Below the pieces are notes generated by a model. It saw nothing but the letters and a program-made list of their open reading frames with translations. It did not search any database and was not told the origin of the DNA. A stretch of DNA of 37,323 nucleotides. It comes from an uncultured Pseudomonadota bacterium (GTDB lineage Bacteria > SAR324 > NAC60-12). Positions 256 to 29,587 of this stretch are shown here, piece after piece; within the stretch, counting starts at the first letter, position 1, and every line of letters begins with the position of its first letter. Where the stretch lies: positions 1 to 37,323 of the forward strand of contig CAJWCD010000017.1 in NCBI GenBank assembly GCA_913020725.1. The letters run 5' to 3'. A program made the position numbers and the translations under genes.

Positions 256-1719
256 TCACGCCAGCAGCGCCAGCACGCTGCTCGGCAGTTGGTTCGCCTG
301 CGTCAGCATCGCGGTCCCGGCTTGGGTCATGATCTGGTTGCGGGTAAACGCGGTCATTTCCGCCGCCATGTCTGTGTCGCGGAGCACCGACTCGGAGCTC
401 GTCAGTTCCTCGTTCGCGATGCGCAAGTAGTTGAGGTTGCTCTCCAGATTGTCCTTCTGGAAAGCCCCCAAGTCCCCACGCTGGATGGCCACCTGCTCGA
501 TCGCCCGATCAATCACCCGGATCGAGTCCGTTGCTCCTTGCAGCGAAGTCACGTCCACCTCGCTGAGCGAGTCGAATCCGGAGCCATTGAATACGGCACG
601 ACCGAGCTGATCTGGACGCATGGAGCGCACCGAGGTCGAGGTGGTCTGTCCATCGTTCGCGCCGATCTGGAAGGTCAGTGAATTCTGGCTGAACGTCAGT
701 GTGCCCGCGAAGTTACCCTCCGGCGCTTTTTCTCCGGAGTAGCGGATCGCCACGCCCTCCGAGGTAAATGCGCCCGGGCCTGCGGTGAGTTCCTGTCCAC
801 GCCCAGTGGCGTCCTCCCCGTTGATCTCTCCAGTGACATCCAGCCCGGTCTGGATCCAGTCGGAGACATCCCCCTTGGTCGAAAGGAGGCCTCCCGTCGT
901 GCTCGCCGCCGTGAAGCTGTGCTCGCTGCCGAACTGCTTGTGCCGCAGGTTAATCTGCAACGGCTGGCCGTTTGGGGTCGTGGCCGCGTCGGGACGCAAC
1001 AGGTCAACGTTGAGTCCTGCGTCTGAGATCGCCTTGCCGAGGTCGTTGAGTGTCTGTTCCACAGAACGCCCCGCCACGGTTTGGAAGTCGAGCGTGCGCC
1101 CGCCCTCGGTGATCGTGAGCTGCTCGCCTGCGTCAATGATCCCCTGATTGAGCGCCTTCGTGCCCCTCACCTCCGAGCGTGTCGACGCCTGCATGATCTC
1201 GACGCTGTAGCCGTTGATCCCTGAGGTCTTCGCCTCGTGCGTTGCGGTCACAAACTCCAAGTTCTTCCCGACCGTGACTCCGTTGCCGGCGGCGCTGCCG
1301 TCGAGCAGGTAGTTATTGCCAAACTGGGCCTGATTGGCCACGCGGTTGATCGTCGTCAGGATGTTGTCGACCTCCTGCTGGTCCGACTGCACCATGAAAG
1401 GGTCGTTTGCCCCCTCGTTGGCCGCATGGACCGCGAGTTGGCGGGCGTTGATGAGCGCCCGGCTCACCTCGTCCATCGAAGCCTCCGCCGTCTGCACCAT
1501 CGAGATCGCAGTCTCCGAGTTGCTGATCGCCTGTCGCAGTCCGGAGGTCTGTGCCCGCAGGCGCTCCGAAATCTGCAGGTTCGCCGGGGAGTCCGCTCCC
1601 CGATTGATCTTCATCCCCGAGCTGAGCCGTTCCATGGTTTTTGCTCCGGCCTCGTGGGTGTTCGTCAGGTTGCGATGTACGTTGAGCGCAACCGGGTTCG
1701 TGTTGATTCGCAGGGACAT
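256..1719 (-). CDS. fliC: Flagellin (copy 1, 487 aa)
   Basis: Flagellin N-terminus (MSLRINTN..ERLSSGMKINRGAD) and C-terminus (RDTDMAAEM..QANQLPSSVLALLA); AAAGGAG RBS upstream. Confidence 0.95.
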   Translation of the reverse strand: MSLRINTNPVALNVHRNLTNTHEAGAKTMERLSSGMKINRGADSPANLQISERLRAQTSGLRQAISNSETAISMVQTAEASMDEVSRALINARQLAVHAANEGANDPFMVQSDQQEVDNILTTINRVANQAQFGNNYLLDGSAAGNGVTVGKNLEFVTATHEAKTSGINGYSVEIMQASTRSEVRGTKALNQGIIDAGEQLTITEGGRTLDFQTVAGRSVEQTLNDLGKAISDAGLNVDLLRPDAATTPNGQPLQINLRHKQFGSEHSFTAASTTGGLLSTKGDVSDWIQTGLDVTGEINGEDATGRGQELTAGPGAFTSEGVAIRYSGEKAPEGNFAGTLTFSQNSLTFQIGANDGQTTSTSVRSMRPDQLGRAVFNGSGFDSLSEVDVTSLQGATDSIRVIDRAIEQVAIQRGDLGAFQKDNLESNLNYLRIANEELTSSESVLRDTDMAAEMTAFTRNQIMTQAGTAMLTQANQLPSSVLALLA

Positions 1720-1907
1720 GGGATTCTCCTTTCAATCAGTTTTTGCCGCCACAGTAATTGCGGCGAACTTAAAGACCGACTTCTTCACAGGTCGGTTCTG
1801 CCGGTCTGCCCTGCACTCGCAAAGCAGACCACTCCTGCACAGCAAAGAGGGTTTCACGTCCTCCCTCTCTGGGGTGCAGCCTCAAACTCCGGATTTGTCG
1901 ATATTTC

Positions 1908-1930
1908 TCAGAAAAATAAACTTTTCCTGA
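1908..1930. promoter_or_regulatory. 23-bp palindromic box upstream of flagellin 1
   Basis: TCAGAAAA-ATAAACT-TTTCCTGA; the same motif lies upstream of three other flagellins. Confidence 0.75.
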
Positions 1931-2536
1931 GAAAAAATCACCCACAGATGGGCTATCGCCTGTCCGGAGCAACGCCCCGGACACTCGGCAAATTTGGAGT
2001 CAGATTCGTTTGAGCAAGAGCCGACACTCAACCTTGAGTGCCCTCTGGGCCGCACCCGGCATCCGGACACGACTCACAGCACACTAGCACTGGCCTGCTC
2101 ACAGGAATCAACATCTGACCAAGAACACCACTCTGCTACTCCGAGCATCCTCCAGACCGTCTCCGGATACCTCCCAGAAAGGGTCTGCATGACCCCAGAC
2201 TCGCACACTCCCCACCGCTGTTCCGGAGAAGATTTCCCCACGATCCCCCTCCAGTTCCTGCCCCAGTAAGGGCCGGGGCAGGATCAGGGATGCTTCACCT
2301 CAGGAGGTTCAGCAGATGATTCAGTTGCTGGTTTCGACTCCGCTCAACCAGCGGGTTGTAAGGGCACCACCCGCAGACAGTGCGACCGTCTCAACCACAG
2401 CTAAAAGCCGGGCCCATGCGGGTATCTTCCAAGCGGCTGACCTTAAACGAACACGCTCAACAAACGTGATGGTCTCTTAACAAGCCGTCATCCCTGCGTA
2501 GGCGCAGGGGCATCAATCAAGCAATCACGCCCGTGC

Positions 2537-2586
2537 TCCCCCTTTCGCAAAGGAGGGAAGAAACGACGGATCGCTCCGCTGTTTTT
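2537..2586. repeat. ~50-bp dispersed repeat, copy A (palindromic core CCTTTCGCAAAGG)
   Basis: Shares the 13-bp core and the downstream ACGAC-N3-TCGCTCC-N-CTGTTTT with 4925-4971. Confidence 0.6.
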
Positions 2587-2736
2587 TACTATTCAAGAAC
2601 TCTAGGAAACAAGGGTGCCCCTCAAACAAGGGCCTCCCTAAATTTTCAACAGCCCTGATTCCGACAAGCGGGCAGGCGCTGAGTGCGGTGACGATAGATA
2701 ACACCGGGCTTCGTCCCGTCTCTCGTCTTGCGCACA

Positions 2737-2809
2737 CCCGCTTGGGGTGACGCTGATGAGAGCGGGGCGAAACCTCGTGCCACCGAGGTCAGATTCACTG
2801 ATGACAAGC
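2737..2809 (+). ncRNA. Hammerhead-ribozyme-like motif (type I topology), copy 1
   Basis: CUGAUGA (2753-2759), G..C 1-bp stem II, GAAA, stem III ACCUCG/CGAGGU, GUC triplet ending 2790. Stem I is imperfect. Loop II AGCGGG is complementary to upstream CCCGCU. Confidence 0.5.
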
Positions 2810-2872
2810 TTCGCTGCGACAGGCGCGGGCGATTCCAACAAAGCGGAGTCGCCAAGGCCACCCACCGGAGCA

Positions 2873-2902
2873 GGCGGATGCGCTGCGCTGCATCCGCCCT
2901 AC
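2873..2902 (-). repeat. GTAG-type REP-like hairpin (second copy 3209-3238)
   Basis: Minus strand GTAGGGCGGATGCAGCGCAGCGCATCCGCC; the second copy lies just downstream of the flagellin 2 stop. Confidence 0.6.
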
Positions 2903-3072
2903 CACCTACCAAAACGCTTAACCCAAGAGCTGAAGCACACTCTGGGACAGCATGTTGGCCTGCGCCATCATTCCTAAATTTTCAACAGCCCTGATTCCGA
3001 CAAGCGGGCAGGCGCTGAGTGCGGTGACGATAGATAACACCGGGCTTCGTCCCGTCTCTCGTCTTGCGCACA

Positions 3073-3145
3073 CCCGCTTGGGGTGACGCTGATGAGAGCG
3101 GGGCGAAACCTCGTGCCACCGAGGTCAGATTCACTGATGACAAGC
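3073..3145 (+). ncRNA. Hammerhead-ribozyme-like motif, copy 2
   Basis: Same sequence as 2737-2809; predicted cleavage after 3126. Confidence 0.5.
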
Positions 3146-3253
3146 TTCGCTGCGACAGGCGCGGGCGATTCCAACAAAGCGGAGTCGCCAAGGCCACCCA
3201 CCGGAGCAGGCGGATGCGCTGCGCTGCATCCGCCCTACCACCTACCAAAACGC

Positions 3254-4717
3254 TTAACCCAAGAGCTGAAGCACACTCTGGGACAGCATGTTGGCCTGCG
3301 CCATCATTGCAGTGGAGGACTCCACCATGATCTGGTTGCGCGTGAAGGCCATCATTTCCTCCGCCATGTCCGCATCGCGGATCACAGACTCAGAACCCAT
3401 GACCTCTTGATGTGCAATGCGCAAGTAGTTGAGGTTGCTCTCCAAGTTGTTCTTCTGGAAGGCTCCCAACTCCCCGCGCTGGACGGCGACATCCTCAATC
3501 GCCTTGTCAATCACCCGGATGGCATCCTCAGCGCCCGGGGCCGTGGTCACATCAATCGTGCTGAACGAGGCGAATCCAGAGTCGTTGGCGACTCCGATTC
3601 CCAGTTTGTCGGCTTGCATACTGCGCAGCGAAAACGCCGAGGTCTGCCCAGCGTTTGCGCCCACATGGAAGATCAGCGCATTCTGCGCGAAGGTCACGGT
3701 TCCAGCGAAGCCTCCTTCTGGTGCTTGCTCGCCGGTGTAGCGCAGTTGAATGCCCTCCACCGCAGAGGCTCCAGGGCCTCCCGTGAGCACCTGCCCCAGC
3801 CCGGTGGCCGCCTCGCCATTGACCTCACCCCCGACGTTCACCCCGGTCTGAATCCAGTCGGAGATGTCGCCCTTTTGTGAGAGGACACCCGATGTGGTAC
3901 TCGCCACAGTGAAGTTCAGCTCACTGCCAAACTCCTTGTGCCGCAGCCGAATGAACTGCGTGGCATCGTTGTCCGTCACCGTCGGATCCGGACGCAAGAG
4001 GTCGAGGCTCAACCCCGCCTCCTTAATCGCCTTGCCAAGGTCGTTGAGCGTCTGCTCCACCGAGTGCCCGGCCTGCGTCTCAAAGTTGAGGGTGCGGCCC
4101 CCTTCCGTGATTGTGAGTTGCTCGCCCTCGTCAATGATGTTCTGCGTGAGTGCTTTCATCCCGACGTGCTCTGAGCGGGTCGCGGCTTGCGTGATCTTGA
4201 TGTCATAGCCGCTCACCCCGGAAGTCTGCGCCTCGTGGGTGGCGGTCAGGAACTCCAAGTTGGCACCCTGAGTGATCCCGTTGCCCGCGCGGCTACCGTC
4301 GAGCAGGCTGTTGTTCCCGTAGGACGTGTAGCTCGCAATGCGGTTGACTTCCTCGACGATGTTGTCCAACTCCCGTTGGTCCGCCTGCAACATGAACTCG
4401 TCGTTGGTGGCCTCGTTGGCCGCGTGGACCGCAAGCTGCCGGGCGTTGATAAGCGTGCGGCTCACCTCGTCCAGCGCCGCCTCGGCGGTCTGCACCAGTG
4501 AGACACCCATTTCCGAGTTGTCGATCGCCTGCTTCAAGCCTGCGGACTGTGCCCGCAAACGCTCGGAAATCTGCAAGTTCGCCGGAGCGTCGGCTCCGCG
4601 ATTGATCTTGAGTCCCGAACTGAGGCGCTCAAGCGTCTTCTCTTGAGTCCGATGATTGTTCGCCATCTGACGATGCACCCCGTAGCTCGGGGAGTTTGTT
4701 TTGATTCTTAAGGTCAT
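3254..4717 (-). CDS. fliC: Flagellin (copy 2, 487 aa)
   Basis: Start re-assigned to MTLRIKTN (ATG 4717, ACAGGAG RBS). Conserved flagellin termini; central domain clearly homologous to copy 1. Confidence 0.95.
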   Translation of the reverse strand: MTLRIKTNSPSYGVHRQMANNHRTQEKTLERLSSGLKINRGADAPANLQISERLRAQSAGLKQAIDNSEMGVSLVQTAEAALDEVSRTLINARQLAVHAANEATNDEFMLQADQRELDNIVEEVNRIASYTSYGNNSLLDGSRAGNGITQGANLEFLTATHEAQTSGVSGYDIKITQAATRSEHVGMKALTQNIIDEGEQLTITEGGRTLNFETQAGHSVEQTLNDLGKAIKEAGLSLDLLRPDPTVTDNDATQFIRLRHKEFGSELNFTVASTTSGVLSQKGDISDWIQTGVNVGGEVNGEAATGLGQVLTGGPGASAVEGIQLRYTGEQAPEGGFAGTVTFAQNALIFHVGANAGQTSAFSLRSMQADKLGIGVANDSGFASFSTIDVTTAPGAEDAIRVIDKAIEDVAVQRGELGAFQKNNLESNLNYLRIAHQEVMGSESVIRDADMAEEMMAFTRNQIMVESSTAMMAQANMLSQSVLQLLG

Positions 4718-4723
4718 TGCGAT

Positions 4724-4791
4724 CTCCTGTTCGCTAGATTCATCCCTGATTTTTTCGCCACTCCATGTGACTCTTGATGCATCCATGCATC
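4724..4791 (-). promoter_or_regulatory. Cluster of CsrA/RsmA-type ANGGA hairpin sites in the flagellin 2 leader
   Basis: mRNA reads GAUGC-AUGGAU-GCAUC, GUCAC-AUGGA-GUGGC, UC-AGGGAU-GA, then an SD ACAGGAG: GGA motifs exposed in hairpin loops. Confidence 0.65.
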
Positions 4792-4924
4792 CCACCGTCT
4801 TGCGACGGGAAGGTCCGCCTCCCTCAAGGCGAAACACTTCCAAGCAGGCAGGATTCCTCTGCCCGCTGGGAAATTTTCCAGCTTGGGAAATGACCTTTAA
4901 CTAGGGTGAATTTTGGCGAAGGGA

Positions 4925-4971
4925 TCCCTCCTTTCGCAAAGGGAGAGCACGACTTGTCGCTCCCCTGTTTT
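4925..4971. repeat. ~50-bp dispersed repeat, copy B
   Basis: Homologous to 2537-2586. Confidence 0.6.
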
Positions 4972-5587
4972 GCCTATCCAAAATTCACGTTAAATAATAT
5001 TTTCCAGACAGTTTTTCAAACAAGTCTCCGCTGCACACGATCCTGTGCTGGGATGGACTTTCAGCCCTTTGCCCTAGGATTCATCCTCTCACGAGGCGTT
5101 GCCCCATGCTGGCTCATCCCGACCTTTGGACCTCAAACAAACAGGTCCAACACATGCGTTGCTCCGGGAGTCCTCCCCGGAAGTACCCGGACCATCTTGG
5201 TCTCGGTTTCACAGGTTCACGCTAGGCAGAGCAGTGTTCTCGATTCCACTTCATGCTGACGTGGAATTCCGGAACTCTGCTTGCTGAGTGCTTGCTCTCT
5301 AAACTGTCGAAGAACATGACCACGCACCTTGCTTGCCTCAGCAGGCAGATGCGCGACGCGGGCAACACCCGCTGCTCAGGAAATAACCTTGCTTGCCCGG
5401 CTGCTGCCGAACTTTGCTTGGGCCATCACCCTGAGCGCTGCTGCCTTGTGACAGCAGCGCTCACCATGATAGTTTTTCGTTTCCACTCTCGCTGACTCCT
5501 CCAGCATCCCCGTCAAGTCCGTCCATGGTCCTGACAGGGTAGCGTCGTCGTCATCAAATGCCCCGTAGGGCTCCAAAACCCCAGTGG

Positions 5588-7045
5588 TCAGGACTGCAAT
5601 AGTGACATCACTGACATTGGGGTCTGGTTCGCTTGGGCCAGCATCGCTGTACTGGAGCTGACCATGATCTGATTGCGCGTGAACGCGGACATCTCCTCCG
5701 CCATGTCCGCGTCACGGATCACGGATTCGGCGTTGCTGATCTCCTCGTGCGCCTGCCGCAGGAAATGGAGGTTACTTTCGAGGGTGTTCTTCTGAAACGC
5801 CCCCATGTCCCCCCGAAAGACGGACAGTTCTTCGATGGCCCGGTCCACAATCCGCATCGTGTCCTCGGCACCCCGCTGGGTGGTCACGTCAATGTCGTGG
5901 AGCGACCCGTAGTCGGAGCCGTTGTCCACCCCCTGCCCCAGTCTGTGGGTGCTGATCGCCCGTAGAGAGAACCGGACATTGTGGTCGGCATCCGGTCCAA
6001 TCTGAAAGTGTTGCGAGCCTTGGGCGAAAGTCACCGTCCCGACAAACCCGCCCTCTGGAATCTCCTCGCTACTGTAGCGTAGTTTCATTCCGGAAATCTT
6101 GGTGGGGGCCGCTCCGGTGAGCACTTGCCCCCGGCCAAAGGCCTCCTCGCCCCCGACCGTCCCGGCGATGTCCTCGCCGTTGTTGATCGTGTCATAGATG
6201 TCAGCCTTCGTGGACAGCAACCCCGAGGTGGTGCTTGCGACTTCAAACTGAAACTCGCTGCCGTACTTCTTGTGCCGAATGTTGAGGAACTGCGGTTCGT
6301 CTGGACTCATGGCCGCCCCCTCCGGCTTGATCAGCTCAAGGTTCAAGCCCGACTGACGGATGGCCTTGTCCAACTTGTTGAGGGTGGTCTCGACCGAATC
6401 CCCCGCCGTCGTCTTAAAGTTGAGGGTTTTCCCGCCCTCCAGCAGAGTGATCTGCTCTTCGGAGTCAACCATGTTGCGCGTGAGTGCCTTTCCTCCGAAG
6501 AGCTCCGAGCGTGCCGCCGCCCGCTTGATGAGCACCTCGTAGCCTCCAAGCGGGGAGGTGTCCGCGAGTTCTGTCGCACTGATGAACTCCAAGTTCGCTC
6601 CGGTGGTGACACCGTTGGCACCCATGCTGCCATCGAGCAGCGCCTTCTTCCCATAGTTGGCAGTGCGAGCGATCCGGTCAACCTGAGCGAGCACATGGTC
6701 AATCTCCTGCTGGTCAGCCTGAAGCATGAACTCGTCGTTGACGGCTTCGTTGGCCGCATGGACCGCCAGTTCCCGGATATGGATCAGTGAACGGTTGGCC
6801 TCGCTGAGCGCCCCTTCTGCAGTTTGTAGCACAGTGACTCCTGCCTCGTTGTTGTCAATTGCCTGTTTCAGGCTGGCTTGCTGGGTGCGGAGCCGCTCGG
6901 AGATGATGAGCTGCGCCGGGCCGTCCGCTCCCCGGTTGATCTTCAACCCGGAAGATAACCTCTCTAGGTTCTTCGCTTGGGCTTGGGTGTTTGTCACCAA
7001 GTGACGCCGTGTGTTCAGCGCACTGATGTTGTGGTTGATTCGCAT
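5588..7045 (-). CDS. fliC: Flagellin (copy 3, 485 aa)
   Basis: MRINHNISALN..ERLSSGLKINRGAD; C-terminal RDADMAEEM..AQANQTP. Confidence 0.95.
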   Translation of the reverse strand: MRINHNISALNTRRHLVTNTQAQAKNLERLSSGLKINRGADGPAQLIISERLRTQQASLKQAIDNNEAGVTVLQTAEGALSEANRSLIHIRELAVHAANEAVNDEFMLQADQQEIDHVLAQVDRIARTANYGKKALLDGSMGANGVTTGANLEFISATELADTSPLGGYEVLIKRAAARSELFGGKALTRNMVDSEEQITLLEGGKTLNFKTTAGDSVETTLNKLDKAIRQSGLNLELIKPEGAAMSPDEPQFLNIRHKKYGSEFQFEVASTTSGLLSTKADIYDTINNGEDIAGTVGGEEAFGRGQVLTGAAPTKISGMKLRYSSEEIPEGGFVGTVTFAQGSQHFQIGPDADHNVRFSLRAISTHRLGQGVDNGSDYGSLHDIDVTTQRGAEDTMRIVDRAIEELSVFRGDMGAFQKNTLESNLHFLRQAHEEISNAESVIRDADMAEEMSAFTRNQIMVSSSTAMLAQANQTPMSVMSLLQS

Positions 7046-7200
7046 GGAACCCCTTCTTTACAGCATTTGAATAACGATTTTTCCTTCACTGATAAGCAAC
7101 GCCTCCATGCGTTCCCCTCCATGCTCCTCGCATCCAGCTTGGAGCATGAATTTTCGCTAAGTCTCTGTCTCTCGACCCTTCAACTTTGGCGAATGTACTT

Positions 7201-7223
7201 TCAGAAATAACTCAGATTTCTGA
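7201..7223. promoter_or_regulatory. 23-bp palindromic box upstream of flagellin 3
   Basis: TCAGAAAT-AACTCAG-ATTTCTGA (perfect 8-bp inverted arms). Confidence 0.75.
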
Positions 7224-7270
7224 CAAATATGCTCTCAACCCGTGGTCATGCGACCCCGGGTTTGCCTGCT

Positions 7271-8710
7271 TTACTTCAGCAGGCTCAGCACCGCTTGCGG
7301 CTGCTGATTTGCTTGCGCCACAACCGACTCCCGGGTCTTGGCAATGATTTGCCCCCGGGTGTACTCTGCAACCGCATGGGCTTGTTCGGAACCCTCAATA
7401 ACCACCCCGTCCTGGTTCAGTTGGGCGTGTTCGTGCTTGAGTTTCCGGATGGTCTCGCGAAGCGTCTGCTGACCCAACTCGTCCAGCCGTTCCTTGATGC
7501 TACCTAGTTCGCTCAGTGCTCCTTCGAGAATGGCCTCGGTGTCTCGCGCCCCTTGGATGGTGCGCAGATGCACATCCTCCAGACTCTGGAATCCCGACGG
7601 ATTGGGAACATCGCGCCCCAAGTCGTGAACCCGGAAACTCCGCAGGCTCAGCTTTGGAGCCGCTGACAACAAACCTCCACCAAGGTGGAGCGGGATGGCG
7701 TTCTGGAGAACAGAGACCGTCCCTGCTTTCTTGAGCGTCAAATCCTCTGTGGCTCCCGTGTAGCACAAAGCCAAGCCCGCAATCAGCGGTGATCCTGAGT
7801 GGCCCCGCAAGATTTGCCCGCGTCCTTCGCAAGGCTCCCCGTTGATGCGCCCCTGCACATCCCTACCGGGCCGTGCGCTGTTCCATTCCAAACTCCTCGG
7901 CGAAAGCACCCCCGGAGTTGTGCTGGCCACTGCAAATTTGTGGCTGCTGCCGTAGCGTAGGTGTTGCAAGCTCAAACGCTCACCTGTCACCAGAGTCGCT
8001 TCCAAAGGCAACTCCTGTTCCCGGAGTGCCTGCTGCAACTCGGCAAGCAACACCTGCGGCGGTTTACCCCGGATGGCCTGGAAGCGCACTTCGGCGTTGC
8101 CCTCGCGGACCCAAAGTTGCTCGCCCCGGTCAATCAAGTCCTGAGTGAGCGGGCGCGTCCCGACAATTTGCGCGGGGAGGGCGGCTTCGTGGATTTCCAC
8201 GCTGTAACCCTCGATCGGTGACGAGGGGATGTCCCCCTCGACTCCAAGAAACTCCAGATGCTCGCCAGCAACCATGCCCTGCACTGCGTGGCTACCATCG
8301 AGCAGCAACTGCGACCGAAACCGGGTCGCGGTTGCCAAGGTCTCGATCAGTCCGAGGGAGTGTTCCAATTCCTGCTGGTCGGCTTCGCGCAGGGCCGTGT
8401 TATGTTCGGCTCCATTCGCGGCCTGTCCGGACAACTCCCGAAGTTCCAGCAGCATGTCCTCCAGCCGTCCCAATGCCGACTCCACGGTCTGCACAAGGGA
8501 GAGGTCGGATTCCACTTCGATGATCTCTTGGGTCAGCGCAACGGCTTCCCGACGACGGTGTTCCGTCATCCTCAGCACCACTGGTCCCGTCGGAGTGACC
8601 TCCGGACGCAGTTGCAGTGCTGGTTTTGGCTCACCTCCCGGTTCTCGTTGAGGTGGTTGCTGATACGAGGCTTGTCCGCTCATGGCGTCGAAGCCGCTCT
8701 TTACATCCAT
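7271..8710 (-). CDS. Divergent flagellin-like protein (copy 4) lacking the conserved N-terminal D0 segment
   Basis: D1 motif (SLVQTVESALGRLEDML..ELSGQAAN), shared central domain and C-terminal AQANQQPQAVLSLLK are present; the N-terminus is a Pro/Gln-rich non-flagellin sequence. Start uncertain (ATG 8710 chosen). Confidence 0.85.
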   Translation of the reverse strand: MDVKSGFDAMSGQASYQQPPQREPGGEPKPALQLRPEVTPTGPVVLRMTEHRRREAVALTQEIIEVESDLSLVQTVESALGRLEDMLLELRELSGQAANGAEHNTALREADQQELEHSLGLIETLATATRFRSQLLLDGSHAVQGMVAGEHLEFLGVEGDIPSSPIEGYSVEIHEAALPAQIVGTRPLTQDLIDRGEQLWVREGNAEVRFQAIRGKPPQVLLAELQQALREQELPLEATLVTGERLSLQHLRYGSSHKFAVASTTPGVLSPRSLEWNSARPGRDVQGRINGEPCEGRGQILRGHSGSPLIAGLALCYTGATEDLTLKKAGTVSVLQNAIPLHLGGGLLSAAPKLSLRSFRVHDLGRDVPNPSGFQSLEDVHLRTIQGARDTEAILEGALSELGSIKERLDELGQQTLRETIRKLKHEHAQLNQDGVVIEGSEQAHAVAEYTRGQIIAKTRESVVAQANQQPQAVLSLLK

Positions 8711-8845
8711 AGGACCCTCGTTGTTATTCCTTTGAGTGGTTGGTGTAGAGGGATTGGCATCCTCCGAACTCCACACTGCTCCGGCACCGAATTCGGCACC
8801 GCCACCATGGGGTCGTTTCCCAGCCTGAAATCAGACTGAACGTTT

Positions 8846-8868
8846 TCAGGAATAATTATTTTTCCTGA
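8846..8868. promoter_or_regulatory. 23-bp palindromic box upstream of flagellin-like 4
   Basis: TCAGGAAT-AATTATT-TTTCCTGA. Confidence 0.75.
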
Positions 8869-9813
8869 TGAAAAAACACGGTCTCCGGCCTCTGACTTCC
8901 GGAGCCTGTGTTTGCTCTTCTCCAAGCTCTGGGGTTGCTAAGAAACCTCTGCAGCACACGCGACTCCGTCAACGGAATCCCATTTGACTATTGCACGAGC
9001 TTTCCAGCAAACGGTACTCTGCGTGGCCATGCCTGCAGCAGAGAACGCTGGACGGCGTCCCTGCTACGGCTTTGGCTGACTCCACTCCACTTCCGGAATG
9101 CGGACATTTTCATGCCCCCGGACTTGGGTGGCAATTTCGCCACCGCCTAGAATCCCCCAATCTCTTGGGTAATGTTGTGACAAGAACCTATGCTTCAGGC
9201 CACCTGCCTCATGCTCGGCAGTCCGACCTGTTCCTTTGCACAAATCCCTTCTGTTTTGTAAACCGAAGGTGCGGGCGCGGCAAAGCGCCTGACAATTTGT
9301 GTTTGGATTCTGCAACACACTCCGGAGCTTGCGCTCCGTTGTGCCATCGATCCAGCGCATCACTCCCTCAGCAAGGGGGTGATCCACTCCAACCGACGGG
9401 CGGATGCACGTCTGCACGGTTTTCTGCCGGGCGGCAATCGTGCTTTTGCCACCACGGGCTGCCCCAATCCCCACATTGTCCAAACGGAATTCCGGAGGGA
9501 TGGACAGAGTTCCCCTGAGATTCTCCACTGTCCGAGAATCCGGGAGACCTGCTCCAGCACACAACCCTTGGCTGCACCGGAGATCCGTGTTGCTCTGCTG
9601 CTCTTGCCGTAATTGAAGCGGCGTGAGAGCGCGGGCTTGCGCACGCATGACTGGCCTTTGGTCTTTAACTCATGGTTTTTGACTCACCTCCATGTTGTGG
9701 GTTGAACAGCGTCCATTTCGTTCAGAGAATGCCGTTGCTGCGCACCAGTTCGATGCCCATCAAAGGCGCTCCCTTGGGAGCTTGGGGCTGGATTTCTCCA
9801 GCCCCGGTCAGTG

Positions 9814-11418
9814 TTACTGCGCACCGCCAAGCAGTTGCAGGACGGATTTCGGAATCTGATTCGCCTGCGCGGCCATCGCCGTGCCTGAGGCAAGCAGAAT
9901 CTGATTCTTGGTGAAATCACTCATCTCCTTAGCCATGTCCGTGTCACGGATCACCGACTCGGCGTTCACCATGTTCTCCTGCGCGACCCGGAGGTTCTTG
10001 AGGTTGTTCTCCAGAGAGTTGCGCTGGAACGAACCGAGATCGCCCCGCAGGACAGAGAGTTCATCAATCGCCTCGTCAATGAGGATCAGGGCATCCTGCG
10101 CCCCTTCCCCGGAAGTCAGGTCAATGTCTGCCAAACTCCGGTATTCGCTCTCGTTATCGATGCCCCGCGACATGTTGTCCGTGCGCAGGTTGCCCAACGA
10201 GAACCGCACCGTCTGATTGGCGTTCGGGCCAATCTGGTAGGTCACGGAGTTCTGTGCCACATGGACGTAGCCGTCCACCTCATCGCTGATCAGTTCTTCT
10301 GCCGTTGAGCGTACAAGTTGCTGGCCGACCACGTTGCCCTGTGCGTCCTTAATGTCCTCCACGCGGGTCTCCAGTTCACCACTGTACTCAACCACCAGCC
10401 CCTCAATCGGGGTGGCGTGCCCTCCGTAGAGGAACTGTCCTTTGCCCACGGAAACCTCCCCGCCGATGTAACCCCCGACGTCCTGCCCTCCATCAGAATA
10501 GGTCGCGTCAAATCCCTTCTCCGCGAGGATGCCAGGAATGCTGGAAACCACGCTGAAGCTCGGCTTGGAGCCGAACATCTTATGCCGCACGGTCAACATG
10601 CCCATCTCGTTGATGTAGACATCCACCTTGAGGCCGGACTCCCGCGCCTTGTCGTGCAGGGAGCGGGCGATCACTGTGGCCATCGCGGATTCAACCTGCT
10701 CCTTGTCGTAAACCTGCGGGTTCAGCCGATGGTTCTGGACGAGGGTCTGAAGGGTCTCCGCCAGCTCGTTATCCTCCATGGTCTTCAGTTCGATCACGCG
10801 GTTGCCCTCGTTGATGAGCAACTCAATGCCTTCCTCCACGTTCTGGAGGCTCACCGGCTTGAGACCCGAGACATAGGCGCGGGTGGCAATCTGCTGGATG
10901 TCCACCTCCCACCCCGTTTTGGTCGGAGCGTTTTTGGTTTCCGGAGTTGCACCCACGAAGCGTAGCTTCTGGCCGACCGTCACTCCGGTCACGGCAGAGC
11001 CGCCATCGAAGAGCGGCTTGTTGCCGAAGCCCGTCGTCATTGCCAAACGGTCGATCGTGCTGAGCAGCCGCTCGGCTTCGTTCTGATCGGCCTGCACCAT
11101 CTTCTGATCGTTGGCGCCTTCGTTGGCCGCGTGCAGGGCGAGCTGACGCATGTTGATGAGCATCGCGCTGATCTCACTCAACGTGCCCTCTGCCGTCTGC
11201 ACCATCGAAACCCCGATCTCTGAGTTCTTGATCGACTGATTGAGTCCGGAAATCTGTGCCCGCATGATCTCCGAAACGATCATGTCCGCCGGACCGTCCT
11301 TGCCGGAATTGATCCGTAAGCCGGATGAAAGGCGTTCGAGATTGGTCTCGGTCGCCCGATTCGTCTCCCCCAAATGCCTCAATGCATTCAGGGACGTCGG
11401 ATTGTGATTTACACGCAT
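9814..11418 (-). CDS. fliC: Flagellin (copy 5, 534 aa)
   Basis: Start MRVNHNP at ATG 11418 with GAGGAGG RBS; conserved termini; two insertions in the central domain relative to copies 1-3. Confidence 0.95.
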   Translation of the reverse strand: MRVNHNPTSLNALRHLGETNRATETNLERLSSGLRINSGKDGPADMIVSEIMRAQISGLNQSIKNSEIGVSMVQTAEGTLSEISAMLINMRQLALHAANEGANDQKMVQADQNEAERLLSTIDRLAMTTGFGNKPLFDGGSAVTGVTVGQKLRFVGATPETKNAPTKTGWEVDIQQIATRAYVSGLKPVSLQNVEEGIELLINEGNRVIELKTMEDNELAETLQTLVQNHRLNPQVYDKEQVESAMATVIARSLHDKARESGLKVDVYINEMGMLTVRHKMFGSKPSFSVVSSIPGILAEKGFDATYSDGGQDVGGYIGGEVSVGKGQFLYGGHATPIEGLVVEYSGELETRVEDIKDAQGNVVGQQLVRSTAEELISDEVDGYVHVAQNSVTYQIGPNANQTVRFSLGNLRTDNMSRGIDNESEYRSLADIDLTSGEGAQDALILIDEAIDELSVLRGDLGSFQRNSLENNLKNLRVAQENMVNAESVIRDTDMAKEMSDFTKNQILLASGTAMAAQANQIPKSVLQLLGGAQ

Positions 11419-11471
11419 ATGCCTCCTCGATGCGCAAGGTTTGCAAACCAAGTCTGAACTTGGCTTGTATT

Positions 11472-19879: not shown

Positions 19880-19955
19880 GCGGCTGTAGCTCAGTTGGTA
19901 GAGTGGCAGCTTCCCAAGCTGCAGGTCGCCGGTTCGAGACCGGTCAGCCGCTCCA
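19880..19955 (+). tRNA. tRNA-Gly (anticodon CCC)
   Basis: 76-nt cloverleaf: acceptor GCGGCTG/CAGCCGC, anticodon loop TTCCCAA, TTCGAGA T-loop, TCCA end. Confidence 0.97.
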
Positions 19956-20041
19956 AGCCCTTCTCCCCCAACGGTTCATGGGGATTCAGACTTTCCAAAA
20001 ACAGTGTGGATTTTGGCTCAGGTGAGGCACCCCCATCAGGA

Positions 20042-21674: not shown

Positions 21675-21766
21675 AAGCTTGGAAGCGGACAGTCAATCTT
21701 GCCTGAAAATAATTTCTTTTGCAGTATTTTCAATGGCTTACGGAGAAGCAAGGGGGTCACTGTGTA

Positions 21767-21831
21767 CAGTTGGTAGAGTGGCAGCTTCCCAAGCTGCAGG
21801 TCGCCGGTTCGAGACCGGTCAGCCGCTCCAA
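21767..21831 (+). repeat. att site: duplicated 3' part of tRNA-Gly
   Basis: Identical to 19892-19956; lacks the 5' acceptor strand, so it is not a functional tRNA. Confidence 0.95.
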
Positions 21832-24190: not shown

Positions 24191-27100
24191 CTACTCCACC
24201 ACGAACTGGACACGTCGTTCCACATGATTATTCACCCAATCGTCTGCGTACACCTCCAGCGTAACCACTCCATCTTGAGGCACCGCCTGGATGGCCCGCC
24301 GATACAGCCGGAACGGTTTCCCGTTGATGGAGTAGGCCACCTCCTGCACCCCGCTGTGGGCATCCCGGACTTCTAGTTGGATATGACTGCCGGAACGCAA
24401 GATGCGGCGCTTGCCCTGCCGCACCTCCGGGGGAATCCCTTGGATGCTCAGTTCCGGAGGTGTGCTGTCCACAAAGAACTCGACGTGCGTGGGAGTCTCC
24501 CCGTTGCCCACCTGATCAACGGCAAAATAGCGCAGCACATGGGCGCCCATTGTTGGCTGGGTAATTGGGGTCGAGTACGGCTGAACCGTTGACGTGCCAA
24601 AGCGGTAGAACACCTGCCCCACGCCACTTCCCGGATCGGCACTGTGCAGATAAATTCGGGTTTGGCTGTTCAGAAACAGTGTCCCTTCGTAACGGTATTG
24701 CTTGCCCTCCAACCGATGACTTGTCTCTGGAGGCGTGAGGTCCAAGAACACCGTGCTGTCCTGCCGCTTTGAACGGTTCCCCACCTTGTCGGTGGCATCG
24801 TAGCTCACGCGGTGCCGACCTGCTTTTTCCGGAAGCCCGAAGGGTTTGCGGTACTGTTGCCAAGCCCCTTCGCCAATCCGGTAGCGGATCTCGTCCACCT
24901 CGGTTCTTAACTCTTGCGCAGCTAACCGAAACCGGGTGGATTTGGCAACAAAAAAATTTCCCTCCGGAGACTTGTGCTGTTTTCCAAAGACCGACAGTGC
25001 AACGGCAGGCGGGGTTTTGTCCAAGGTGAACTCCAGCGTGTGGGGCAGCTCGCGGTTTCCCACCCGATCGGTTGCAAAGTAGCGGAATTCGTGGACCCCC
25101 TCCGGCAGTGCCTGCAAGACCGAACCGGTCAGCGCACGCTGGTAGCGTCTGGGATTTTCCTCACCAAACTGATAGCGGACCTCCTTGACACCGGACAACC
25201 CGTCTGCCGAAGCCAAGCTGATTCGGGATTTAGGCGAAAGTGTGTTGCCGAAGAAGGGTTGCTGGACTTCATGGTTGGTCCGTGGCGGGGTGAGGTCCAC
25301 CTCGAACTGGAGGGTTTTCGTGGGTTCCGCATTGCCCACGCGGTCCACCGCGTAGTAGCGCACCTGGTATTGCCGCTCCAAGAAAAACAAGTCAATGGGG
25401 GCCGTGTAGCGGACAAACCCGGAATCGTTGAGGGAGTAGAGCAACTGGTCCACTCCGGATTGGAAGCCGAGTTGCGGCTCCTGCGCGATCAGCGTGAGAG
25501 CAGCACCCTCCCCGAAATAAGTCACGCCGCCGCGAGTGTAATGCCGGGCGCTGCTCAAGCGTGGCTTCGTGACAGGTGCATCACCATCAATGTTGACCCG
25601 AAAATGCTTTGCCATCCGTGAGAGGGACAGCTTCAGCGTTCCGGGTTTGTTCCTAGCAAAAACCAGAGGCTGCGGCCCTTGCTCCGCAGGCGGAATGGCC
25701 AGCAGATAAGAGTCCTGCTCCCCGGCTTCATCCGCAGAAATCCGTAGAAAAAACTCCAAACCTGCCGCTCCCATCAACCCGTGGTCTTCACTCAGAACCC
25801 AGCGTTTCCGGGCCTTTCCGCCGACCTTGCTCACCATTGAGGTCGCCCATGGGGAGTTGTCCACAACGATGGCGAGCGACCTTGTCGCTTCCCGATTGCC
25901 AACATGATCTTCGGCATAAAACTGCAACCGATGCGGCCCTGTTTCTGCAATCGTGATGGGTACTTGATAGGGAACGCAATCCTTGTCATCCAGACAAACC
26001 CACAGCGTCTTCACGCGAGACTCCAAGTCTGTCGCCGTCAGGATAACTTGGGAATCGCGGTTGATGATCACCGTGTTTCCACTCCAGTACAAAGGCCCCT
26101 CAATCCGGAAGTCCGTGGTTGGCGGAGTGCCATCCGTGTAGAGCTTGAGGCGGTGGTGACGGCGGTTGCCCACGCGATCCACAGTATCTCCGTGAATCCA
26201 GTGCAGTCCAGAATTGGGTGGTGCCAAGAAGGGCTGTTGGTAGGGGCCCACCTTCCCCTCATCCACCCGGAACGAGACCGATTCAACTCCAGCGGCGGCA
26301 TCCCGCGTGTCGAGCCGGATGCGGGTTTGGTCGGAAATGTACACCACTCCGTCGTACTTGAAGACTCCGGCTTCCGCCACAATTTGCAGATCCGGAGGGG
26401 TTGTATCGTGATAGAAGGTTGTGGTGTGTCGTGCTTCTGTGTTGTTGACACGATCCCGGGAATAAAACTGCAACGTGTGCTTACCGGACGCCATCGAGTC
26501 GGCACGAAGCGGACGTTGATAACGCTTCAGCGTCCCATTGTCCAACTGATAGAGCAGTTCCTTGACACCGGCTCCGGCATCTTCAGCTTCTAGCACTAGC
26601 ACTCCCTTCGATGCCACAGACGATTCGTGATGTGGCCCCTCAAAGCGCAGGACGGTTTGCGGCGGAGTGACATCCACTTCAAAATCCACAATCCGCGGGG
26701 ATTCGGGGTTGCCCACTTGGTCCACAGAGTAGTACTGCATCCGGAAGCGGCGATCCTGCCTCAGGTCGAGTTGGAGCGTGTCGGCAAGCTGAAAGGGTTG
26801 CCCTGCAAGTGCAGCCCACGTCTGCCCCAGCCCGGACGCTGTGTCCGTCCCCTCCAGTGCAAACACGGCTCCTTGGCCGATGAACCAGCGGTTCGCCCTG
26901 CGGTAAACCGTGGTGTTGCGAAAAACAGGCTTGGTGCGGGGTGGAGTGCCGTCCGCATGGACCACGAACTCCTGCACGCCGACTGCGTGGTTTTTGAGGA
27001 CATTCGCCCCGGCCTTGAGCAGCACGGGAGTCTCGGGAAGTTTTGTAGGCTTGGACTGGAACACAGCCGCCGCGTCCCCTTTGGGAGACGTACTCAACAA

Positions 27101-27265
27101 CAGATACACTGGGTGAGCCAAGGGTGCGAACACCCGCCCCTTGGCATCGGCATGAACTCGGTAGGATGGCGAGGGGAGTTCTGGAAACTCAGCCGCAGGA
27201 TTCGCCCATGCCCCCCCGGAGAGTGTCACAAATCCCGCAAGCATCCATAAGCAAGCTCTGTTCAT
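24191..27265 (-). CDS. Secreted 1024-aa protein with nine ~90-aa beta-rich repeats (OmpL47-type/Ig-like)
   Basis: Signal peptide; repeated DxTPP..D..SGV..Y..P..H..Y..DxVGN.E units. The family name is from recognition, not a search. Confidence 0.8.
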   Translation of the reverse strand: MNRACLWMLAGFVTLSGGAWANPAAEFPELPSPSYRVHADAKGRVFAPLAHPVYLLLSTSPKGDAAAVFQSKPTKLPETPVLLKAGANVLKNHAVGVQEFVVHADGTPPRTKPVFRNTTVYRRANRWFIGQGAVFALEGTDTASGLGQTWAALAGQPFQLADTLQLDLRQDRRFRMQYYSVDQVGNPESPRIVDFEVDVTPPQTVLRFEGPHHESSVASKGVLVLEAEDAGAGVKELLYQLDNGTLKRYQRPLRADSMASGKHTLQFYSRDRVNNTEARHTTTFYHDTTPPDLQIVAEAGVFKYDGVVYISDQTRIRLDTRDAAAGVESVSFRVDEGKVGPYQQPFLAPPNSGLHWIHGDTVDRVGNRRHHRLKLYTDGTPPTTDFRIEGPLYWSGNTVIINRDSQVILTATDLESRVKTLWVCLDDKDCVPYQVPITIAETGPHRLQFYAEDHVGNREATRSLAIVVDNSPWATSMVSKVGGKARKRWVLSEDHGLMGAAGLEFFLRISADEAGEQDSYLLAIPPAEQGPQPLVFARNKPGTLKLSLSRMAKHFRVNIDGDAPVTKPRLSSARHYTRGGVTYFGEGAALTLIAQEPQLGFQSGVDQLLYSLNDSGFVRYTAPIDLFFLERQYQVRYYAVDRVGNAEPTKTLQFEVDLTPPRTNHEVQQPFFGNTLSPKSRISLASADGLSGVKEVRYQFGEENPRRYQRALTGSVLQALPEGVHEFRYFATDRVGNRELPHTLEFTLDKTPPAVALSVFGKQHKSPEGNFFVAKSTRFRLAAQELRTEVDEIRYRIGEGAWQQYRKPFGLPEKAGRHRVSYDATDKVGNRSKRQDSTVFLDLTPPETSHRLEGKQYRYEGTLFLNSQTRIYLHSADPGSGVGQVFYRFGTSTVQPYSTPITQPTMGAHVLRYFAVDQVGNGETPTHVEFFVDSTPPELSIQGIPPEVRQGKRRILRSGSHIQLEVRDAHSGVQEVAYSINGKPFRLYRRAIQAVPQDGVVTLEVYADDWVNNHVERRVQFVVE

Positions 27266-27313
27266 CCTTGTAAAACTCTGCTCCTAAAAGAAAAACACCC
27301 CACCTGCAAACAT

Positions 27314-29194
27314 TCACAGAGTGTCGGTGATCACGAATTCTGCCGAGTGTTCTGCGGTGTTGTCCACGTTGTCCTGCGCCCGAACCCAGATGCGGTAACG
27401 TCCCGGTTCTGTGAAGAACAGCTCATCCTTGTAGGGCTGTGCAGGTCCATCGTCAAGTGAGAATTCCAAACGCTTCACATTGGCAGGGTCTACTGCGCTC
27501 AAAAAGAGGGTCGTGTTGATGGGATAAACGTTCACCACCTCGCTGCCCTCCCCCTCTTCCGTTCGCAACGGATCGGTGCTGAAGACTTCAGCGATCTCCG
27601 GGGGGGTGTTGTCCACAAGCAGCAGGATCGGAGTGAACACCTCACGGTTGTTGACCTGATCCGTTCCCCAAAACCGAAAGAGGTACTGCCCCTCGTTTTC
27701 AAGAGTCATCGGACCCGCATAGGCTTGTGTCGGCTGTCCCGCAAGCTGGTACTCGATTTTCTGCATTCCGGAAAGGTCATCCTCGCCATCCAAGCGAATC
27801 TGCGTGTGGCTGGCAATCCAGAAAACACCTCCGCCCCTAGTGTAGTTGGAACCACGCAGTTGGAACTGTGTTTTGGGTGGTTGGGAATCCATCACGAGGT
27901 TCAGGGATTTCGGATTTGAGCGATTGCGCAGAGCATCGATTCCCCGATAGTTGACCGTAAACTCCCCAGACCTGATCAACGGTGTGAAGGGTGTCGCGTA
28001 CTTGGAATAACCCTGCTTGCTGTCTTTTTTTCCGGACTTCCGGACTCGGTACTCGATGGACTGCACCTGCATTTGCGCATCGGTGGCCTTGAGTTGAATT
28101 CGGGTCCGCTTCGAGATGAACTGACGAATTTCCGTCGCGTAATAGTTCCCAATGAGGGTGTGGGCGACTCGGGGCGGTGTGCGGTCCAAATAGAAGGCGT
28201 ACTCCCGGGCTTGCTCGCGGTTCTCCACCTGATCCACTCCGTAGTAGTACAGCACATGCTTGCCGTCCGGAAGTTCGGACAAGGCGATGCCCGCCTTGTC
28301 GTCATAGACGTGGGATTCATCCTCCCCATCGAAGTAATAATGCACCGTCTGCACTCCGGACAAAGCGTCCTCGCTGCTGAGGCGGATCACGGAACTGGTG
28401 GAGAGGGTGTCACCAAGCAAGTTCTCGTGAGTGGCGTGTACCGTTGTGGGCATGGTGAGATCAACTGTGAACAGCACCTCCTGCGGAGTGCTTGCATAGC
28501 CCACATGGTCCACGGCATAACGGCGCAGGGAGTAGTGTTTCTCCTGCCCCAAATTCAACTCCGACTCGTAGCGCACAAACGCCCCGCCGTCGATGGAGAA
28601 AAAAACATCCCGCACTCCAGAGAGCGCATCCTGAGCCGTCAGCGCTGCGGTCAAGCCCTTGCCGAAAAAAGTGTGCCCGCCCTTGATGAAGACCGGAGCC
28701 TCCCGCAGTTTGAGTGTGGAGATTGGCGGAGCGCCATCGGCAACAAACTTGAAGAGGCTTTCCTCCTTGGTGAGGAAGTTCACCCAGCGGACAAATTGCT
28801 GCCCCTGAATCTCCAACGAGAGTCCGGAGGCGCGGTAACGCTCCGTCTGGGTGGTGTTGTCCTCCCCTGAAGTGCTGGGAACAAGGGTGCCGAATTGCTG
28901 TGACTTGCGCCCTGTGGTCTCGTCGTCCTCAGCCTCGTAGATGGTGTTCAGCAGAAAGCTCGGGGCATCCTCCTGAGCAGACGGAGACAAGCGAATCCAA
29001 AAAGGCAGGTCCACTGGCCAGAACACCGACCCTAAGTCATCCACATACACCTGATGCTTGTGTGCCGGTGGAGGAACTTGGGAGTCTGTTGCGCTGGCAG
29101 TGGTCTGATCCTGTGCCCACAGAGGGCCTGCTGCGATTCCCGTGAGCAGCAACACACTGCTCCCAATCACCCATTGTCTCAAGCTACGCTTCAT
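27314..29194 (-). CDS. Secreted 626-aa paralog with five repeats of the same type
   Basis: Start MKRSLRQW (ATG 29194, AAGGAGG RBS); signal peptide; repeats ending DHVGY, DQVEN, DALRN, DQVNN, DNVDN. Confidence 0.8.
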   Translation of the reverse strand: MKRSLRQWVIGSSVLLLTGIAAGPLWAQDQTTASATDSQVPPPAHKHQVYVDDLGSVFWPVDLPFWIRLSPSAQEDAPSFLLNTIYEAEDDETTGRKSQQFGTLVPSTSGEDNTTQTERYRASGLSLEIQGQQFVRWVNFLTKEESLFKFVADGAPPISTLKLREAPVFIKGGHTFFGKGLTAALTAQDALSGVRDVFFSIDGGAFVRYESELNLGQEKHYSLRRYAVDHVGYASTPQEVLFTVDLTMPTTVHATHENLLGDTLSTSSVIRLSSEDALSGVQTVHYYFDGEDESHVYDDKAGIALSELPDGKHVLYYYGVDQVENREQAREYAFYLDRTPPRVAHTLIGNYYATEIRQFISKRTRIQLKATDAQMQVQSIEYRVRKSGKKDSKQGYSKYATPFTPLIRSGEFTVNYRGIDALRNRSNPKSLNLVMDSQPPKTQFQLRGSNYTRGGGVFWIASHTQIRLDGEDDLSGMQKIEYQLAGQPTQAYAGPMTLENEGQYLFRFWGTDQVNNREVFTPILLLVDNTPPEIAEVFSTDPLRTEEGEGSEVVNVYPINTTLFLSAVDPANVKRLEFSLDDGPAQPYKDELFFTEPGRYRIWVRAQDNVDNTAEHSAEFVITDTL

Positions 29195-29374
29195 GCGCCT
29201 CCTTGTCGTTTTGGTTTGGTCGTCTCTAGGACATTGCCTGCTGCTCCCGAAGCCAGGGGGAACCATACCACAATCTTCCGGGTTAGGCGACACTCTTTCG
29301 TATTTCTGGTGATCCTTGCCACAAGGTCTGCTAGAGTGACCCTGCATTGAAGAACTCCAAACACTAGCCTCATC

Positions 29375-29587
29375 ATGAAACGTATCGTGTTGTACTTCGG
29401 GGCGGGGTTGCTCTGCGGAGTGTTGTTGAGCGCCTGCGCTTCCGGTGGGAACAAAGCCGGGGTGGTCGCCCAAAGTGGCCGTTCCTCCACGTTCGGCCCA
29501 ACCTGCTTCAGCTTGGCCAACCTGTTTCCGGGAGAACCCGGTTGCGGCACAGCCTCCCGGCTGGGCAAAAACCAATCCACGCCCTGA
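29375..29587 (+). CDS. Small lipoprotein (70 aa)
   Basis: MKR + hydrophobic stretch + lipobox LSAC. Confidence 0.6.
   Translation: MKRIVLYFGAGLLCGVLLSACASGGNKAGVVAQSGRSSTFGPTCFSLANLFPGEPGCGTASRLGKNQSTP

Follow-up and report, generated by a model that had tools for sequence, protein, structure and literature searches.

A probably silent, phage-type hammerhead-like motif in an apparently polymorphic duplication beside a flagellin gene

The closest described counterparts of the motif considered here are the type I hammerhead ribozymes of phages and prophages (Perreault et al. 2011, PMC3088659), whose nearest Rfam family is RF03152 (RAGATH-1-hammerhead). According to that paper, prophage hammerheads occur in clusters, about 40% of hammerheads have pseudoknots, and one ribozyme whose stem II is a single pair has been reported as active. 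In the experiments it describes on clustered bacterial hammerheads, spliced or circular products were sought and none were detectable. Tandem hammerheads are also known from animal non-LTR retrozymes, which, as presented by Cervera and de la Pena (2020, PMC7229834), carry type I hammerheads, predicted to be free, in tandem repeats of ~300 bp, from dimers upward; the same account has the hammerhead of plant retrozyme and viroid circles kept blocked by a complementary strand. With respect to activity, mismatches at the innermost pairs of stems I and III are stated in a review (PMC8495972) to reduce cleavage most, and for trans-acting ribozymes the cost of a mismatch just 3' of the NUH triplet is put at 500-fold or more (PMC3138052).

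The window, i.e., the whole stretch of DNA that was analyzed, comprises 37,323 nucleotides from an uncultured Pseudomonadota bacterium (GTDB lineage SAR324; NAC60-12). Among homologues of an aminotransferase encoded in the window, the closest ones bearing an organism name belong to SAR324 cluster or Deltaproteobacteria genomes (58-63% identity). A first-pass annotation had described two hammerhead-like ribozymes in it, placed so as to release an RNA antisense to a flagellin gene. The motif most likely constitutes a new representative of a known ribozyme family, in decayed form. The account that we favor as probable, while well short of certain, is that of a decayed, self-blocked relic of a phage-type hammerhead, which was duplicated incidentally.

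Structure and family of the motif

The elements of the motif, assigned from the sequence and all on the + strand, are as follows.

2737-2799, +: hammerhead-like motif, copy 1, type I
3073-3135, +: hammerhead-like motif, copy 2, identical, with C17 at 3126
2737-2742, +: pseudoknot strand of copy 1, CCCGCU
2746-2752, +: 5' strand of stem I, copy 1
2753-2759 (copy 1) and 3089-3095 (copy 2), +: core CUGAUGA
2760 and 2768, +: stem II of copy 1, the single pair G10.1/C11.1
2761-2767, +: loop II of copy 1, AGCGGGG, 7 nt
2769-2772, +: GAAA of copy 1 (GAA at 2769-2771)
2772-2777 with 2784-2789, +: stem III of copy 1, 6 bp
2790 (copy 1) and 3126 (copy 2), +: C17 of the GUC triplet
2791-2799, +: 3' strand of stem I, copy 1, interrupted

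The core, the 1-bp stem II, the 6-bp stem III and the GUC triplet were confirmed in both copies at the positions first given for them. The motif possesses the conserved core of a hammerhead (CUGANGA...GAAA, A15.1-U16.1 and an NUH triplet) together with the G10.1-C11.1 pair of stem II and a fully paired stem III. The pseudoknot proposed between loop II and the upstream CCCGCU was likewise recovered, as 6 bp of complementarity alone; a 6-bp match to this loop occurs in 2% of random 35-mers, and the linker of 10 nt is just beyond the usual 6-9. The reservation expressed earlier about stem I was borne out. Stem I is not paired directly at the core, since positions 1.1-2.1 form a G-A, followed by a single C-G, a 2-nt bulge and five pairs; a distal stem I of 5 bp is possible between 2746-2750 and 2795-2799. 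Inspection by eye revealed no alternative stem I partner for the motif of the kind found in the non-circular hammerhead permutations that PMC10085705 presents. A second CUGAUGA, at 2798, is without a GAAA partner.

Chance is expected to supply 0.0015 matches per genome to a descriptor composed of the core, a G-C stem II, a loop of 6-8 nt and a perfect 6-bp stem III; the figure assumes independent base frequencies, the descriptor was chosen post hoc, and the pseudoknot is left out of the count. The observed matches of this descriptor in the genome are two, namely copies 1 and 2.

Relatives of the motif were collected by a core-pattern scan of viral contigs, in which stem I was outside the search pattern. 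The scan yielded 53 loci; the 32 matches with a stem III of at least 6 bp (near-duplicates included) were retained, and the other 21 were dropped as likely due to chance. All 32 are built alike, as type I hammerheads in which a lone G-C pair serves as stem II and the 7-nt loop II has a complementary strand upstream. Position 1.1-2.1 is paired in 32 of 32 (in one as G-U) and unpaired in the window motif, and at least three contiguous stem I pairs adjoin the core in 31 of them, compared with none in the motif. Stems I and III covary in a 32-sequence alignment, whose rows were picked for pairing, a choice that favors structure. Among 41 distinct intact members, selected by a stem III of at least 5 and a stem I of at least 3 pairs, a pseudoknot of at least 5 bp is possible in 36, with a linker of 6-9 nt in 25 of these and of 11-18 nt in the remainder. 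Intact members often number three or four per 5-kb locus; in L081, L086, L087, L088, L106 and L116, three or four intact pseudoknotted type I hammerheads lie within 2-5 kb.

A covariance model built from the alignment, of 32 intact relatives, scored the window motif at 33.9 bits (rough E 1e-8), whereas the next-best match in the window reached 8.7 bits. The motif aligns to model positions 17-54 only, without its stem I; positions 1-16 and 55-61 are left unaligned. Intact members, many of which belong to the training set, reach 66 bits over positions 1-61. Moreover, loop II of the motif is one base away from that of an intact phage locus, L061. On the basis of the shared architecture, the 33.9-bit match and the L061-like loop II, the motif very likely descends from the phage-type family of type I hammerheads that combine a stem II of one pair with a loop II pseudoknot.

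In a search against Rfam, which the first-pass annotation had named as a check, no hammerhead was matched in the window at the gathering threshold or with E relaxed to 10. Of 10 intact loci used as a control, 8 matched RF03152 (3 above the cut-off and 5 below). The loci of a short-linker group (L020, L031, L035, L059 and L061) score under the RF03152 cut-off, and Rfam therefore under-detects this group. The combination of CG before the core and AG after GUC was also searched for in the viral contigs; none of the 9 pattern matches has a stem III of more than 4 bp, so that no recurrent variant with the stem I mismatch was found.

The motif thus resembles the type I hammerheads of phages and prophages, as described in PMC3088659, in its core, G10.1-C11.1 pair, GAAA, 6-bp stem III and GUC, and in a 7-nt loop II that pairs with an upstream strand. 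It differs from them in a stem I that is unpaired at 1.1-2.1 and bulged, and in its context, which is a flagellin array in contrast to the hammerhead clusters between phage genes. Since stem I is not paired at the core, the motif is filed as a degenerate derivative of an RF03152-like family and not as a working member. A chance resemblance within a palindromic repeat would fit the lack of an Rfam hammerhead match at E up to 10 and the absence of homologues outside the species, but is barely credible in view of the low chance expectation, in which the pseudoknot is not even counted, the score of 33.9 bits against a background of 8.7, and a loop II one base from that of an intact phage member. 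The same expectation and score support the hammerhead ancestry claimed initially.

The distribution of the motif is narrow. Searches of 87 other phylum genomes, 50,697 phage records and 72,556 plasmid records yielded no DNA match to 2637-2830, and in the pattern scans near-identical loci were confined to two contigs of the same species. The search for further copies within the genome, another check named at the outset, returned this one locus and none elsewhere, unlike the dispersed copies of a retrozyme; a weak match on contig C43 was judged by eye to be due to chance. With at most 120 candidates scored per genome, the covariance model gave strong matches in 1 of 44 other genomes of the family. 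The short-stem type I hammerheads of this genome (G007, 12 Mb; L141-L153), at least a dozen in number, lie next to (TA)n microsatellites, a neighborhood that suggests eukaryotic contigs; the sequences show no similarity to the window and were set aside as likely eukaryotic contamination.

The upstream arm and the predicted state of the core

A second element, overlooked in the first reading, lies upstream of each core.

2702-2739, +: blocking arm, complementary to 2745-2779 and predicted to sequester the core and loop II
3038-3075, +: the same arm in copy 2, an exact copy

With 60 nt of upstream context, the predicted cost of freeing the core and loop II is 27.6 kcal/mol, versus 2.8-10.9 in the 41 intact members, whose cores are not covered by such an arm; removal of the arm lowers the cost to 11.3 kcal/mol. 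The calculation takes no account of the pseudoknot, of Mg2+ or of folding during transcription. The 131-nt hairpin region has z-scores of -4.0 on the + strand and -4.35 on the minus strand. The folding thus predicts an occluded core. A + strand transcript would make the arm before the core, and a transcript starting after about 2740 would be without it. Because stem I is mispaired at the core and the arm is predicted to trap the core, the motif is probably not a working ribozyme and likely represents a silent relic. A core placed within a long inverted repeat, absent from the intact members, is the arrangement that silences the ribozymes of viroids and plant retrozymes. The arm is the most interesting loose end of the locus, since the circles of these elements, according to PMC7229834, block their hammerhead in a like manner.

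Certain features run counter to decay, in that the core, stem III and the pseudoknot strand are intact and only stem I and the fold are off; decay need not leave only these two affected. None of 46 variable intergenic sites, listed by hand from run and contig comparisons, falls within 2737-2800, where 2.5 would be expected (P about 0.09).

When the arm is read on the minus strand, a degenerate second core-like stretch can be discerned by eye, with an 8-nt loop II, GAAG, a 5-bp stem III-like helix and CUC followed by AG near 2680. Also by eye, both polarities have CG ahead of the core and AG behind the triplet. The covariance model left the minus-strand core unscored at E up to 10, and the identity of the arm was matched by 38 of 2000 shuffles. 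Arm and core arm differ by seven mismatches, five of which are transitions; three give G-U on the + strand and two on the minus strand. Such transitions fit the neutral decay of an inverted duplication equally well as an element of two polarities. In viral DNA, 16 pattern matches to head-to-head cores on opposite strands were obtained, none of the 16 with a complete second core. Direct repeats noted by eye on either side of the hairpin, near 2654 and 2797, were not significant (148 of 3000 shuffles and 148 of 5000 genome pairs), and the best alignment lay elsewhere.

The 336-bp duplication in the flagellin locus

The two copies of the motif lie within an exact duplication, arranged with respect to the flagellin genes as follows.

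256-1719, minus strand: flagellin 1, 487 aa
2617-2633, minus strand (that of the flagellins): terminator-like hairpin, a few bases past the end of copy 1
2637-2972: duplication copy 1, exact, 336 bp, with ends that have no bases in common; its presence varies within the species
2827-2903: two short palindromes of multi-copy repeat type, with several copies in a congener (G001) and a few in the genome of the window
2918-2972, minus strand: duplicated last 55 nt of flagellin 2, an exact copy of 3254-3308
2973-3308: duplication copy 2, continuous with the coding sequence of flagellin 2
3254-4717, minus strand: flagellin 2, 487 aa

The palindromes at 2827-2903 are presumably REP-like. Small ORFs over the unit had no Pfam match. 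Both congeners possess the orthologous flagellin pair (78-83% identity), separated by a gap of 170-172 bp without motif or insert; here, the single-copy gap between flagellin 2 and flagellin 1 measures 1198 bp and includes short multi-copy palindromes.

The presence of two motifs 336 nt apart and the copied 55-nt 3' end of flagellin 2 were confirmed in the assembly. The duplication itself, which had been left as unverified, was examined in 8 of the 19 sequencing runs holding the region (4 DNA and 4 RNA, each from a different study within its set), all as contigs; runs holding the region were mostly marine. Among the DNA runs, X2 has a junction record (53 and 30 bases per side) and a unit depth of 12.2 versus 5.4-7.7 in the flanks. 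X4 provides a contig of exactly 2637-2972 at a depth of 19.8 versus about 7 in the flanks, with a junction depth of about 9.8 inferred from depth tables. X8 skips one copy, and X1 leaves the unit uncovered. Among the RNA runs, the junction is bridged in X16 by 58 and 48 bases and recorded in X18 by 30 + 30; X14 covers only 3119 onward, and X15 does not cover the unit. At least 31 bases on both sides of the junction are present in X16 alone, which is an RNA library, and one DNA run could be the source of the assembly itself. A junction or its signature is thus seen in four runs, and one copy in three datasets, namely X8 and the metagenome contigs L084 and L090 of the same species, which are single-copy without the junction. 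X2 and X16 each show two tails, one running to the junction and one into flagellin, that are a single base apart, a pattern expected of diverged copies or of a mixture of strains. The duplication is therefore most likely a real tandem that is polymorphic in the species, and its natural one-copy and two-copy alleles offer a built-in comparison.

The cleavage site is 153 nt from one end of the unit and 182 nt from the other, 55 nt of the unit belong to flagellin, and one ribozyme alone could not have freed such a unit. For these reasons the most likely origin of the duplication is at the DNA level, regardless of the ribozyme.

Three more exact two-copy tandem duplications were observed in the assembly, at C33:18777-18920 (72 bp), C46:10764-11087 (162 bp) and C60:7606-8017 (206 bp). 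They were seen at the level of the assembly and not of reads, have no shared end bases, all overlap long open frames and contain no hammerhead core. Either a recurring homology-free process or an assembly habit could account for them. Two Y1 transposase fragments occur at contig edges of the assembly.

Evidence on transcription and accessory functions was also collected. The RNA-library contigs of X16 and X18 run uncut over the GUC site. The RNA-library contigs as a group show no depth peak on the unit, and, being contigs, give no strand, ends or level. Their cover has gaps at 1968-2227 in all four RNA runs and at the unit in X15. The X14 contig has its end at 3119, eight bases away from where the product is predicted to begin; neither the gaps nor this end were accorded weight. 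No sigma-70-type promoter, the one type within the scope of the search, was found for the + strand or on either strand between 1700 and 3500. The 3.45-Mb assembly, 93% complete, had no match to reverse transcriptase (PF00078), Ku or RtcB. A search of the literature, judged by title and abstract start, found no link between hammerhead ribozymes and flagellin.

Origin of the locus and competing explanations

Under the favored account of an incidentally duplicated relic, a phage-type hammerhead would have entered the gap between flagellin 2 and flagellin 1 with ~1 kb of foreign or repeat-rich DNA, an insert that would have widened the gap from about 170 bp, as in the congeners, to 1198 bp. An old inverted duplication is the likely source of the arm, which would have covered the core; stem I would have decayed later, with the loss of any useful rate of cutting. 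Later still, a duplication of 336 bp that affected part of the population would have copied the motif by accident, and the motif is present twice because some strains carry this duplication. The likeliest RNA at the locus would be the minus-strand 3' UTR of flagellin 2, in which the region would form a stable hairpin and not a ribozyme, and which the duplication would merely lengthen by 336 nt. The most likely reading is an ordinary one, in which a known ribozyme family is represented by a decayed member that a local duplication has copied.

The first-pass annotation had envisaged a ribozyme that acts within a transcript of the + strand; its activity might be slow or conditional. Two cuts in the duplicated strains would free a 336-nt RNA with 55 nt antisense to flagellin 2 that could circularize. 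The perfect core and stem III, the 6-bp pseudoknot and the lack of variants within the motif (P about 0.09) are what such a ribozyme would show. The unit also folds stably (z -5.5), with its core blocked as reported for plant retrozyme and viroid circles (PMC7229834), and the X16 and X18 RNA-library contigs cover the unit and its junction. This reading is nonetheless rather unlikely, and a functional tandem cassette releasing an antisense or circular RNA is not supported: stem I is broken by the G-A at 1.1-2.1, a position that all 32 viral matches pair, an arm transcribed ahead of the core is predicted to sequester it, and the second copy is missing from three datasets. Moreover, the unit ends do not coincide with the cleavage sites, the unit includes host gene sequence, and the three other duplications contain no ribozyme. 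Neither a + strand sigma-70-type promoter nor a reverse transcriptase or RtcB was found, the strandless RNA contigs pass the GUC site uncut, and circles went undetected for the clustered bacterial hammerheads studied in PMC3088659. A different function, in which the hairpin was co-opted as a stabilizing or processing structure in the minus-strand 3' UTR of flagellin 2, its hammerhead ancestry being incidental, would be in keeping with the minus-strand fold (z -4.35), with its position between the flagellin 2 stop and the terminator-like hairpin at 2633-2617, and with the X14 and X16 RNA-library contigs that join flagellin coding sequence to the UTR. We consider it unlikely, as the hairpin is missing from both congeners and from the 87 phylum genomes searched, and has two variants within the arm. 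The duplication may, on the other hand, not be chromosomal at all, the junction having come from a small excised DNA circle or an assembly loop around one chromosomal motif. Contigs cannot separate a tandem from a circle, the inferred junction depth in X4 (about 9.8) exceeds its flank depth (about 7), and only the X16 junction record, from an RNA library, has at least 31 bases on both sides. The recurrence of the identical junction across several studies argues against this explanation, as does the one-base tail difference in X2 and X16, which diverged copies would produce (a strain mixture fits too), and we regard it as rather improbable.

The remaining explanations invoke an RNA element. The locus is similar to animal non-LTR retrozymes, as characterized in PMC7229834, in that its type I hammerhead belongs to a tandem repeat of roughly 300 bp, and tandem hammerheads 336 nt apart are indeed present in the assembly (single-copy in X8, L084 and L090). 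In contrast to those retrozymes, the locus is single, two-copy and polymorphic, its unit is G+C-rich and carries host gene sequence, its ribozyme is predicted to be blocked where theirs are predicted to be free, and its host is bacterial. No helper reverse transcriptase was found, an absence that is unproven in a 93% complete assembly. With viroids and plant LTR retrozymes, as portrayed in the same paper, the locus shares a core covered by a highly complementary strand and a monomer of viroid size, but it is without signs of an RNA replicon, a whole-unit rod, LTR features or an intact ribozyme on the opposite strand; the minus core is degenerate and unscored, and the monomer folds as a branched structure (62-67% paired as a circle) and not as a rod.

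A decayed, chromosomally integrated fossil of a two-polarity viroid-like element, with head-to-head hammerheads in one rod that would cut at 2790 on the + strand and near 2680 on the minus strand, would explain the core-like stretch, 8-nt loop II, GAAG, stem III-like helix and CUC followed by AG of the minus-strand arm, as well as the CG and AG common by eye to both polarities and the good folding of both strands. We hold it to be decidedly unlikely. The inverted duplication of a single hammerhead yields the same symmetry, the minus core goes unscored at E up to 10, and the modest identity of the arm is reached by 38 of 2000 shuffles. A complete second core was seen in 0 of 16 viral pattern matches, the branched 336-nt circle forms no rod, and no reverse transcriptase was found. 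Still more elaborate, and very unlikely, is a retrozyme-like unit in which a + strand transcript would be cut twice to give an arm-locked 336-nt circle antisense to flagellin, with the arm as the remnant of an opposite-polarity hammerhead and the whole as a fossil viroid-like replicon. If RNA from the locus were cleaved and circularized, it would represent a ribozyme-made circular RNA from a bacterial chromosome, of the kind that Perreault et al. (PMC3088659) sought in clustered bacterial hammerheads and, in the experiments described, did not detect. The favored account of a relic copied by local duplication carries a warning, in that hammerheads arranged in tandem are not necessarily a retrozyme when they come from a metagenome-assembled genome.

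Several other features of the window may be recorded. The flagellin-like array at 256-11451 consists of five minus-strand genes of 485-545 aa, of which that at 7271-8776 is much more divergent; four of the array genes have weak similarity, below the cut-off, to the flagellinolysin model. Short palindromic repeats at 2532-2558 and 4925-4951, at 2330-2357 and at 2466-2504 recur among flagellin intergenic regions or in related genomes. Further along, the 3' 65 bases of a tRNA gene at 19880-19956 (CCC anticodon, Gly) are repeated at 21756-21831, 1875 bp downstream, and the two repeats bracket a 319-aa ORF without a Pfam or NCBIfam match; the repeat is likely the attachment-site scar of a small island. 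Finally, two adjacent large genes at 24191-29575 (1024 and 753 aa) encode multiple OmpL47-type beta-barrel domains.
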